Below are positions 15,887 to 19,694 of a stretch of DNA of 32,622 nt, one piece after another. Numbering within the stretch: position 1 is the stretch's first letter; each line of letters opens with the position of its first letter. The notes beneath the pieces are model-generated. The model saw only the letters and a list, made by a program, of their open reading frames with translations, made no database searches and was not told the DNA's origin. The DNA lies in contig JBFMAE010000356.1 of assembly GCA_040756085.1 (NCBI GenBank), positions 1 to 32,622 of the forward strand. The letters are read 5' to 3'. The position numbers and the translations under genes were made by a program. The stretch comes from Thermodesulfobacteriota bacterium (GTDB taxonomy: Bacteria > Desulfobacterota > BSN033 > UBA1163).

Positions 15887-16708
15887 CTATTTCGATGAAG
15901 CTGTGTAATTCGGATTAAATTTCTGATAAATCTTTTCGGTCAGAAAGATGGGCACAAACAGGGTTGGGTAAACGAGAGGGAGGGCCTCATCCTTTCCAAT
16001 CACCAGACACCCCTTATCTTTTAAACTGAGGGCGATCTTTTTTAAAACATCGACCTGGCATTCTTTTGAAAAATAAGTGAAGGCCAAATTTCGACAGAAA
16101 ACCATATCCATCCCTGAAAATGGTTCTTCGTTGATTATATGGTGTTTTCTAAATTCCACACCCTCCCGGATGGCCCGATCGAGAACATAAAAACCGTTAT
16201 CGATTTTGAAAAAATCTCTGAGGACTTCTTCAGGAACCTCTTTCACACTACTTTTCTTATATTTCCCTTCTTTCGCTCTTTCAATAAGATTCTCATTAAC
16301 ATCCGTAGCTAAAATGGAGAGATGGATTTGAGGCCAAGTTTTCTCAAATCTCTCCTTCCATAGCAGGCAGATGCTATAAGGCTCCTCCCCGCTGGCGCAG
16401 CCAATCGACCAGATCTTCAAATGCCCCTCATTCCTGTTTTTAATGATTGTTGGAATGAGAAAATTTTCGATGGTACTGAAAACCTCTCTGTCTCTGAAAA
16501 ACCTTGAAATAGTTACGGCAAGGAATTTTGACAAGTGGCTTTGTTCTTCAGGATCGTTTTTAATTTTTAATAGATAATCTTCAAATTTAGAAAGACCGAC
16601 CTGGGCTATCCGATGTTCGACCTTTCGCCTGATCCCTCTCCTTTGAAAGGGCCGCCATTGAAGACCAAGAAGGGGAGTGACTTCTCTGAGGAATTCATCA
16701 AAGTGCAT
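15887..16708 (-). CDS. cheR: CheR-family SAM-dependent protein-glutamate methyltransferase (orphan)
   Basis: ISRFFRD, IWSIGCASGEEPYS, ILATD, DMVFCRN. Confidence 0.9.
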   Translation of the reverse strand: MHFDEFLREVTPLLGLQWRPFQRRGIRRKVEHRIAQVGLSKFEDYLLKIKNDPEEQSHLSKFLAVTISRFFRDREVFSTIENFLIPTIIKNRNEGHLKIWSIGCASGEEPYSICLLWKERFEKTWPQIHLSILATDVNENLIERAKEGKYKKSSVKEVPEEVLRDFFKIDNGFYVLDRAIREGVEFRKHHIINEEPFSGMDMVFCRNLAFTYFSKECQVDVLKKIALSLKDKGCLVIGKDEALPLVYPTLFVPIFLTEKIYQKFNPNYTASSK

Positions 16709-17204
16709 GGGCTTTTTCTAAGTCCAATAGTTGCCTCTTGACCTTAAGGCCATGGCCAAAACCGCCTAGGCCACCATTGCTTTCAATCACTCGATGACAA
16801 GATAGGATCAATGGAAGGGAATTAGAACCGTTTGCATTCCCCACTGCCCGAAAGGCTTTTGGATGGCCAATAGCCTTCGCAATCTCCTTATATGATCGCG
16901 TCTGGCCATAAGGGATTTTTGCCAATGCTGACCAGACTTTTTTCTGAAATGGAGTTCCTTTCATATCCAATTGGCAATTAAAACGCCGAAGTTCTCCCTT
17001 TAGGTATTTTCTTAATTGAGATAGAACCTCCTTATTCTTTTGATCGTCTCTGATGATCTCCCCGGGAAAACGTTCCTTTAATCTCCTCAGAAAGGCATTC
17101 TCTGATCTAAGAAAGTCCACCATGCAGACACCCTTATCTGTGGAGGCAACAAAAACCTTTTTTAAAAAGGGTGAATCAAAAAAAGAATAGTAAATTTTCT
17201 CCAT
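16698..17204 (-). CDS. ogt: Methylated-DNA-protein-cysteine methyltransferase
   Basis: GTPFQKKVW, IPYGQTRSY, RAVGNA, SCHRVI (variant of PCHRV). Confidence 0.93.
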   Translation of the reverse strand: MEKIYYSFFDSPFLKKVFVASTDKGVCMVDFLRSENAFLRRLKERFPGEIIRDDQKNKEVLSQLRKYLKGELRRFNCQLDMKGTPFQKKVWSALAKIPYGQTRSYKEIAKAIGHPKAFRAVGNANGSNSLPLILSCHRVIESNGGLGGFGHGLKVKRQLLDLEKAHAL

Positions 17205-17213
17205 CCTGCCCTC

Positions 17214-17540
17214 CTAACTTAAAATCGCCAGCGCATAGCGCCTGCCTGTCCCCATTGATCTGACCTCATCCAAATCATTACGAATGGAATAGGCCGCAGA
17301 CTCTTCCATGACCACACGATATCCCCTTTGAATGTGACGAAGGAATGCCCTGCCAAGAGAACTTCCTCCAATTGTATCGCCATGGATATAGACATGGCTC
17401 TCGATGGTTTTTAATTTTTCTACGATAAATTTGGATGGAGTGGGGAGGATGAGACTGATACAATTTTCGATCTTTTTTTGTGAATCAAAAAGAAGAATAT
17501 CCTGAGTGCCCGCTCCAATATCAATCGCCAGTATCTTCAT
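17214..17540 (-). pseudogene. Truncated DUF1786-like protein
   Basis: ILAIDIGAGTQDIL N-terminus, GDTIGG, AAYSIRNDLDEVRSMG. Only 108 aa, whereas I recall roughly 340 aa for the family. Confidence 0.6.
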
Positions 17541-17612: not shown

Positions 17613-19067
17613 TTATCCTTTGATCACTCCCATAGGGACAAGTTTCACGACCTTGCGGCTGATACCTGCATGATGAACCACACTCACCACTTCCGTCACA
17701 TCTTTATAGGCATCCGGAATCTCCTCTACAAGCGTCCCGCGGCTTGCCCCTTTGACGATGATCCCTTTATCTTCCAATTCCCTCGTAATCGATCTCCCTT
17801 TTGCTGCTTTGATCGCCTGGTGGCGGCTCATCACACGACCTGATCCATGGCAGGTGCTACCGAAAGTTTCTTCCATGGCCCTCTCCGTCCCCACCAACAC
17901 ATAAGAACATCTCCCCATATCTCCTGGAATGAGGACCGGTTGGCCGATGGATCGATACTCTTCTGGAACATCGGAGTGACCGGGTGGAAAGGAGCGGGTT
18001 GCTCCCTTTCTGTGGACACAGACCTTCAGGGTCTTTCCATTGATGGTGTGGGTCTCTATCTTGGCGATGTTGTGGCAAACATCATAAATCAAATCTAACT
18101 TTAAATCTCTGGGACTCTTCTGAAAAACCTGCTCAAAGGTCTCCCCCACCCAGTGACTGATCATCTGCCTATTGGTAAAGGCAAAGTTTGCCGCACAGGC
18201 CATGGCTTCCAGATACTGCTTCCCTTCCGTTGAAGAGATGGGAGCACAACAGAGCTGGGGGTCCGGAAGTTCAATCTGATATTTGCGGGCGGCATCCATC
18301 ATCATACGGATATAATCATCACACACCTGATGTCCCAAACCCCTTGAACCGGTATGCACCGTAATCGTAACCTGATCCTTCCAGAGGCCTAATGTTTGAG
18401 CAATGGCCTCATCAAAGACCTCGGCCACATATCCAACCTCAACAAAGTGATTTCCAGAACCAAGTGTTCCCAACTGGGCCTTGCCCCTCTCCATCGCCCT
18501 ATCAGAGACACGATCCGGGTCTCCTCCTTCGATGCACCCCTGTTCCTCGATATGGTCGAGATCTTCTGCTGTGCCGAAACCTCTTTGTACTGCCCATTTG
18601 GCGCCCTTTTTGAGGACCTGTCGCTGCTCCTCACGATCCAGTTTGAGGTCTTTCCGGTGAGACCCTACGCCTGAAGGGATATTGGCGAAGAGGGTCTCCA
18701 CTAGCTCTCTCATTCTTCCCTGGATGTCCATGCGGCTCAACCCTGAGCGCATCAATCGGACGCCTCAGTTGATATCGTAACCCACTCCTCCAGGGGAAAC
18801 GACCCCTTTCTTCATATCAAAGGCTGCCACGCCACCGATGGGAAAACCATAACCCCAATGGATATCCGGCATGGCCAAGGAATGGCCCATAATGCCCGGT
18901 AGCCAAGCCACATTGGCGACCTGGACTAGACTCTGGTCCTTTCGAATATCGGCGAACATCCGCTCGTCCGCATAGACGATGCCATCGGTCCTCATCTTAC
19001 CCTCTCGTGGAATTCTCCAACGGTAATCATCAATTTTTTGAATTTTGAACTTTTCTTCTGCTGACAT
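17613..19067 (-). CDS. rtcB: RtcB RNA 3'-phosphate/5'-OH ligase, 484 aa, probable selenoprotein (UGA at 18765-18767 = residue 101)
   Basis: The two track ORFs are in frame: [19 protein letters not shown]. Other motifs intact: [47 protein letters not shown]. Confidence 0.93.
18726..18764 (-). promoter_or_regulatory. Bacterial SECIS-like hairpin 3' of the rtcB UGA
   Basis: Minus strand after UGA: GGC GUCC GAUUG AUGC GCUCA [GGGU] UGAGC C GCAU GGAC. The G-first apical loop starts at +22. Confidence 0.75.
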
Positions 19068-19247: not shown

Positions 19248-19664
19248 TTAAAGGTCAAAAATAATCTGGGCCCTCCAGCTTCCTTCCGTCTTTCGAACCT
19301 CTATCCAGTGGTGGGTGACAGCCTTCACTTCTGTCTTGATCACATGAACCCCTTCCTGAAATGGCTCTCCCTTCACCTTCGCTTTCAATCCATCTTCTCC
19401 AACGGACTCCACTTTAAACCCTTTAAAGAGAAGATTCTCCACATCGTGAAGATAGAGGAGTTCGCTTAACCAATCCACCATCAGGCGCTCCAGTTCCTTT
19501 CCTCCAATCTCAATCCGTCTCTCAGTCCGGCGCCTCACTTTCCTTAAATCGGTGATGAGGTGGAAGAAGGCTTCACCGGCATTTTCGAAAAGCGCCTTGA
19601 GATCTTCACCATAAACGATGAGGCCGATATCGGCCGTATGATCTAAAACTTCAAAGCGCTTCAT
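19248..19664 (-). CDS. Archease (RtcB cofactor)
   Basis: FEVLDHTADIG, WLSELLY, EVKAVTHH, C-terminal IIFDL. Upstream of rtcB on the same strand. Confidence 0.93.
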   Translation of the reverse strand: MKRFEVLDHTADIGLIVYGEDLKALFENAGEAFFHLITDLRKVRRRTERRIEIGGKELERLMVDWLSELLYLHDVENLLFKGFKVESVGEDGLKAKVKGEPFQEGVHVIKTEVKAVTHHWIEVRKTEGSWRAQIIFDL

Positions 19665-19694
19665 CCACAACCCAATTTCTTCTCTGACACAAGA

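Follow-up and report, generated by a model that had tools for sequence, protein, structure and literature searches.

Which amino acid is specified by a TGA codon that interrupts an RNA ligase gene at the position of a supposedly invariant, metal-binding cysteine? The question is raised by a stretch of 32,622 nt (the window), i.e. positions 1 to 32,622 of contig JBFMAE010000356.1 of the Thermodesulfobacteriota assembly GCA_040756085.1, which contains a gene for the RNA ligase RtcB. With a probability of about 0.9, we conclude that the UGA at codon 101 of this gene is decoded as selenocysteine (Sec). The source, a Syntrophales-like bacterium from groundwater, would then use Sec at this site, as would many of its relatives. 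Three features carry the argument:

17613..19067, minus strand: gene for the RtcB 3′-phosphate/5′-hydroxyl RNA ligase, 484 codons plus TAA, with one in-frame TGA; Pfam PF01139.
18765..18767, minus strand: TGA codon 101, predicted to be read as Sec, equivalent by alignment to Cys98 of Pyrococcus horikoshii RtcB.
18730..18752, minus strand: putative hairpin of the bacterial selenocysteine insertion sequence (SECIS) type within the RtcB coding sequence (ATGCGCTCAGGGTTGAGCCGCAT, apical loop GGGT), recognized by its fold and by synonymous constraint.

Translation of the minus strand from 19067 to 17613 yields 484 residues and a terminal TAA, and the only internal stop is the TGA at codon 101 (GYDIN*GVRL), exactly as the initial annotation had described. 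In a listing of open reading frames (ORFs) the gene appears as two pieces of 100 aa and 380 aa. The read-through product matches the complete Pfam profile PF01139 (positions 1-426 of 426) with 596.9 bits at a cut-off of 27. A genome-wide profile search recovered the gene with 589.8 bits and no second RtcB in the 3.8-Mb genome of 444 contigs. The closest solved structures are TTHA1785 of Thermus thermophilus (2epg, E 1e-182) and P. horikoshii RtcB (1uc2, E 1e-178), and the proteins of these two species (including the entries 4dwq and 4isz) belong to the same family, have the same length and align from end to end with the window protein.

The HMMER alignment to 1uc2 and 4dwq places codon 101 at Cys98 of the P. 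horikoshii enzyme, in agreement with the equivalence proposed in the initial annotation. With Asp65, Asp95, Cys98, Asn202, His203, His234, His329 and His404 of P. horikoshii RtcB as references, all remaining active-site residues are retained (D68, D98, N206, H207, H238, H332 and H407). Asp65, Asn202 and His404 are residues that we take to function in metal binding or guanylylation. The Asp, His and Asn residues are thus common to the window protein and to the P. horikoshii and Thermus enzymes, and position 101 is the equivalent of position 98, which bridges the two metals; the difference is that the TGA, presumably Sec, replaces Cys, and that codons 106-112 contain the SECIS-type hairpin. Cys98 of P. 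horikoshii RtcB is reported to ligate both Mn2+ ions, and Ala mutants of the equivalent Cys in the E. coli, Pyrobaculum and human enzymes are described as ligase-dead (PMC10630183).

The TGA is not restricted to the source genome. For 34 of 40 relatives, an RtcB orthologue with exactly one TGA was found, at identities of 63-87% (22 of 24 genomes of the same family, 11 of 13 from two other families of the class, and one of three further out). The other six had no match, a distant paralogue only, or a stop-free RtcB. All 20 RtcB loci that were fetched from relatives have the TGA at the identical codon. In an even sample of the phylum, 326 of 401 genomes contain RtcB at E ≤ 1e-100, and a hand count of the best 150 matches, with 182 further matches outside the count, yielded 47 genes with one TGA from 13 families; among these 150, TGA forms and stop-free forms often coexist within one family. 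Named genome records contributed 80 RtcB loci, mostly from Syntrophaceae/Syntrophales, "Deltaproteobacteria" and metagenome-assembled genomes (MAGs) of Thermodesulfobacteriota. The codon is TGA in 42 of these, TGC in 23 and TGT in 12, and three loci that did not match the motif pattern (L093, L095 and L097) were excluded from the codon count. Neither chance nor assembly error can account for the same TGA in 20 of 20 and 42 of 80 loci. For the combined set of 97 loci, the values are 62 for TGA and 35 for TGC or TGT. A second phylum, to which one TGA locus (L096) and an Entotheonella record belong, has the TGA form in three and Cys orthologues in four of 17 genomes. Orthologues with TGA at the same codon, proposed as a check in the initial annotation, are thus found across at least 13 families and in a second phylum.

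The best 120 matches in a collection of 5.8 billion proteins comprise 118 Cys forms (GYDINCG) and two fragments of 379 aa (P0023 and P0064) that begin just past the TGA position, and no U- or X-bearing RtcB is among these 120. The existence of these fragments shows that gene callers mis-call the TGA-containing genes, as had been anticipated.

The sequence around the TGA is under strong selection. The flanks of the TGA are invariant. The median dN/dS (ratio of nonsynonymous to synonymous substitution rates) relative to the source gene is 0.066 before the TGA (98 aligned codons) and 0.054 after it, based on 30 and 19 of 52 pairs, respectively, with 22 and 33 pairs dropped because dS was saturated or undefined. 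Both parts of the gene, before and after the TGA, are thus under purifying selection, which was another of the suggested checks. TGA terminates 522 of 1550 long open frames in the source genome, showing that the genetic code is standard.

A bacterial Sec codon is expected to be followed by a SECIS. The stem of the hairpin begins 12 nt after the TGA and the loop GGGT lies 21 nt after it. The structure, which spans codons 106-112, consists of a 4-bp apical stem, a one-base bulge and a 5-bp lower stem, with a minimum free energy (MFE) of −12.1 kcal/mol over 30 nt. The published model of bacterial SECIS elements comprises an apical loop of 3-9 nt on a stem of 4-16 bp, a G in the first two loop positions, a spacing of 16-37 nt between UGA and loop, and an MFE of ≤−7.5 kcal/mol (PMC13188914), and the RtcB hairpin agrees with it in all four respects. 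Our own implementation of this model accepted 51 of 53 distinct Sec forms and 10 of 35 Cys forms. The hairpin folds at one position in all 62 TGA loci, for which the mean MFE is −10.45 kcal/mol; the 35 Cys loci have a mean of −6.78 kcal/mol.

The strongest sign of selection on the RNA itself is the synonymous constraint. Among 365 sliding windows along the 53 distinct Sec genes, the eight with the lowest synonymous-codon diversity all overlap the hairpin, with a minimum of 0.31 at codons +5 to +11 versus a gene mean of 0.84. The Arg at +6 is encoded by CGC in 50 of the 53 genes; the Arg at +3 uses six codons. Stem positions are paired in 92.2% of the cells, compared with 24-42% when the partner is slid, and other lineages retain a stem either through concerted changes of two codons (TCA to TCC and AGC (Ser) to GAG (Glu)) or by removal of the bulge. 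The downstream hairpin that the initial annotation had counted as part of a bacterial Sec signature thus fits the published model and coincides with the part of the gene in which synonymous change is most constrained. Searches of the window with Rfam at gathering thresholds gave no match, and no tRNA genes were found in it.

The distribution of Sec and Cys suggests a dynamic history. A maximum-likelihood tree of 88 distinct RtcB proteins (53 Sec and 35 Cys; nine of the 97 loci had identical protein sequences and were included only once) requires at least 10 changes between Sec and Cys, five of which are forced by well-supported branches, and several Cys forms are nested in Sec clades. Most of the Cys forms that pass the hairpin model are closely related to Sec forms (L039, L040, L074, L077, L083, L086, L087 and L099), including two (L039 and L040) with 86-87% identity that have kept the same hairpin; no such hairpin is present in distant Cys forms, among them those of Desulfuromonadales and Brocadiales. 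We read the hairpins of the close kin as fossil SECIS elements that were left after recent Sec-to-Cys changes. Taken together, these comparisons indicate that Sec-RtcB is old, is widespread in Desulfobacterota-type lineages and has been repeatedly exchanged with the Cys form. In the close-kin Cys forms the hairpin lies about 12-42 nt past the Cys codon. These genes are natural matched controls for a comparison of Sec and Cys. One contig of one MAG contains two full-length Sec-RtcB copies (L044 and L050; 85% and 83% identity to the source protein), both with TGA and hairpin.

Decoding of UGA as Sec also requires the corresponding machinery. The initial annotation had pointed to selA, selB, selC and selD as the genes to be sought: selA (538 bits), selB and selD are present in the source genome, and selC was not found in the assembly of 444 contigs. 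The selD gene itself holds one in-frame TGA and would thus encode a Sec-type SelD (contig C156:11267-12193, L004). The selB gene is split over two contigs and has a near-identical duplicate end. The two C-terminal ends (L002 and L003, on contigs C154 and C5) differ by a few residues. The match on C5 was considered as a paralogue and rejected, because a near-identical C-terminal fragment is explained by strain or assembly redundancy; the contamination of the MAG is estimated at 5.9%.

A tRNA-Sec with the anticodon UCA (RF01852, 68-82 bits) was detected in 10 of 11 other genomes with TGA-RtcB that were tested, i.e. in four of five close relatives, in five of five genomes from five other families, and in the genome of L096. 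Where matches are listed, a single one per genome is above the cut-off. The tRNA-Sec genes of four genera of the family (L118-L121, from G001, G005, G020 and G012) differ at 0-3 positions in 90 nt and are conserved far beyond the surrounding protein genes. SelA was found in 46 of the 47 genomes with TGA-RtcB of the phylum sample.

Several observations weigh against decoding as Sec. The first is the missing tRNA-Sec of the source assembly, which was searched with ARAGORN, Rfam RF01852 and blastn. ARAGORN with default settings reported 37 tRNAs, without a tRNA-Sec and with several amino acids lacking a tRNA; a blastn search with the tRNA-Sec genes of relatives gave matches of 14-17 nt only. Candidates from less stringent searches were rejected, i.e. 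dozens of "SeC" calls of a relaxed ARAGORN run, which were spurious, and matches to RF01852, which turned out to be tRNAs for Ser, Leu and Arg. The absence of selC carries little weight, because the assembly is distributed over 444 contigs and its 37 tRNAs leave several amino acids unserved. Furthermore, one TGA-RtcB genome (G033, 75% complete) has no tRNA-Sec above the cut-off, and in another (G389, 90% complete), which has a tRNA-Sec, no SelA was found. The co-occurrence of SelA and TGA-RtcB adds little, because SelA is present in 371 of the 401 genomes and hardly discriminates. Concerning the hairpin, the fold of the single sequence is no better than that of shuffled sequences (z −0.65), there is little compensatory covariation in a fixed register (two cells changed on both sides), and an independent-pairs test of hairpin versus TGA comprised five pairs (median p 0.5) and was powerless. 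For many RtcB pairs dS is saturated, so that few are usable for dN/dS. On the chemical side, the combination of Mn2+, a hard ion, with the soft ligand selenolate is not obviously favourable. An engineered P. horikoshii RtcB with Sec98 is reported to cleave itself at a nearby peptide bond (PMC4150793). Lastly, the assignment of Sec has been derived throughout from genome sequences.

Two further fates of the UGA have to be weighed. The first is that it is recoded to Cys or another standard residue, via a Cys-charged tRNA-Sec-like tRNA together with SelB or by near-cognate read-through, in which case an ordinary Cys-RtcB would be made in an unusual way. Cys-recoding tRNAs of the tRNA-Sec-like type occur in some anaerobes. 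The missing selC of the source assembly, the retention of the hairpin in the Cys forms L039 and L040 and the self-cleavage of the engineered Sec98 enzyme (PMC4150793) are all compatible with this explanation. It is nevertheless very improbable, as the tRNA-Sec in 10 of the 11 other genomes is canonical, and as selA and a Sec-type selD, which are required only for the synthesis of Sec, are present. In addition, a costly combination of UGA and hairpin would be hard to maintain over 13 families when TGC and TGT encode Cys directly.

The second is that the UGA mainly terminates translation, either as a selenium-dependent switch or with the production of a 100-aa peptide and a 379-aa protein that is re-initiated at a downstream Met. 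An ATG is indeed present five codons past the TGA, gene callers yield 379-aa proteins from such an ATG (P0023 and P0064), and insertion of Sec is generally inefficient in bacteria. However, the 379-aa piece would be devoid of D68, D98 and residue 101, i.e. of three metal ligands, the N-terminal 100 codons are constrained like the rest of the gene (dN/dS 0.066), and the Met after the TGA is Val or Leu in 14 of the 53 Sec forms. We regard predominant termination as having only a slight chance, comparable to that of recoding as Cys. A pseudogene or an assembly or sequencing error in a single genome, suggested by a lone in-frame stop in a MAG with 5.9% contamination, is refuted by the comparative data, as the same codon is TGA in 62 loci of independent assemblies, the gene has no other lesion and is under purifying selection on both sides, and the contigs of four public sequencing runs, which drop rare variants, have no difference at 18765-18767 among those listed.

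Decoding of codon 101 as Sec would involve an ordinary recoding mechanism. The SECIS hairpin 12 nt past the UGA would recruit SelB with Sec-tRNA(Sec), and SelB would insert Sec in place of termination, yielding a full-length RtcB RNA ligase of the archaeal/eukaryal type. The UGA at the Cys position of homologues and the G-containing apical loop 16-37 nt downstream are features that the gene has in common with known bacterial selenoprotein genes according to the model of Zhang and Gladyshev (as given in PMC13188914), and the patchy distribution of Sec and Cys and the mis-annotation as truncated genes are shared as well. The novelty would be the place of Sec, at a residue generally held to be an invariant Cys: in a non-redox RNA ligase it would serve as a metal ligand, and the selenolate of Sec101 would sit between the two divalent metal ions of the GTP-dependent ligation centre, in the position of the bridging thiolate of Cys. 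Most likely the enzyme would work together with archease, which is encoded just upstream:

19248..19670, minus strand: archease gene (archease is an RtcB activator elsewhere); Pfam PF01951, 152.1 bits, profile positions 1-136 of 136.

The archease gene is separated from the RtcB gene by 180 nt and lies on the same strand, and the two apparently form one operon. Archease is a known activator of ligases of the RTCB type.

In formate dehydrogenase (Mo/W) and [NiFeSe] hydrogenase (Ni), Sec likewise coordinates a catalytic metal, and for the latter it has been proposed that Sec shields the metal site from irreversible over-oxidation (PMC13188914). These are redox enzymes, whereas RtcB is a GTP-dependent ligase that catalyses nucleotidyl transfer at a binuclear Mn2+ centre. 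The active-site Cys of RtcB has been described as invariant and oxidation-sensitive (PMC12263435) and has been seen in an oxidised state in enzyme purified aerobically (PMC10630183). In human RTCB, which has PYROXD1 as its protector, the equivalent "invariant" Cys122 is the oxidation-sensitive weak point, and the copper- and oxygen-dependent inactivation of RTCB acts via this residue (PMC10630183, PMC12263435). Archease is the activating partner of human RTCB, and its gene adjoins the Sec-RtcB gene here; by comparison with the human enzyme and PYROXD1, it is the residue itself that would be changed, to Sec. By analogy, the most likely benefit of Sec would be to guard an oxidation-sensitive metal ligand from irreversible over-oxidation, and Sec may make an oxidation-prone site reversible, which fits the known inactivation of RTCB via this cysteine. 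Our hypothesis is that Sec stands in for protection of the PYROXD1 type, and an altered metal preference is a possible alternative benefit.

The engineered P. horikoshii enzyme (PMC4150793) contains the same Cys-to-Sec change at the same residue. According to that report, it was produced with an artificial system based on UAG and EF-Tu, in contrast to the UGA and SECIS of the natural forms. The natural Sec forms are conserved and are therefore presumably stable.

As far as could be checked, Sec-RtcB appears to be a genuine, conserved and previously uncatalogued form. A compilation of May 2026, described as "the most comprehensive inventory", covers 119 prokaryotic selenoprotein families or subfamilies, including families known from GenBank annotation only (PMC13188914). 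PF01139 is outside these 119, i.e. neither RtcB nor PF01139 is in Table 1, and the words ligase, RtcB and splicing have zero occurrences each in the text. RtcB is likewise not mentioned in the main text of a 2022 review (PMC9312934) or of a study of Deltaproteobacteria (PMC8318568). A full-text literature search, with supplementary tables (e.g. Supplementary Table 6 of PMC8318568) and GenBank annotation outside its scope, retrieved the engineered enzyme only and no natural Sec-RtcB; that table lists putative non-redox selenoproteins of marine Deltaproteobacteria and could hold an earlier mention. NCBIfam contains no Sec-specific RtcB model, and its best match is a model for intein-containing RtcB, below the cut-off.

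Sec-RtcB would add a family to the prokaryotic selenoproteome beyond the 119-family catalogue of 2026, and it would be one of few enzymes without redox chemistry in which a metal is ligated by Sec. We propose only tentatively, and at rather less than even odds, that it is the first selenoenzyme found in nature to act in RNA processing or repair, and that in it a selenolate bridges the binuclear centre of a non-redox GTP-dependent ligase and is kept for robustness against oxidation or for metal use. If this were true, Sec would be a different evolutionary answer to the problem that animals solve with PYROXD1-type protection, and it would offer a natural experiment on the choice of Sec over Cys outside redox catalysis. 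The advantage of Sec over Cys becomes directly testable with matched natural orthologues at 86-87% identity. In addition, RtcB would be mis-annotated as truncated or split in many genomes of anaerobes, which hides a core RNA-repair function.

Among the sequencing runs listed as containing the stretch, the best match is a groundwater metagenome (0.55 of words), and no RNA run is included. Two further features are located downstream of the RtcB gene:

17214-17540, minus strand: 108-aa ORF with a DUF1786 fragment that covers only the first ~40 of 252 profile positions and ends just before Ogt.
16698-17204, minus strand: gene for O6-methylguanine-DNA methyltransferase (Ogt), ORF uninterrupted.

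The 108-aa ORF is probably a gene remnant. The family of Ogt, PF01035, is reported to have Sec-containing members elsewhere (PMC13188914). A CheR gene is also found downstream of RtcB.

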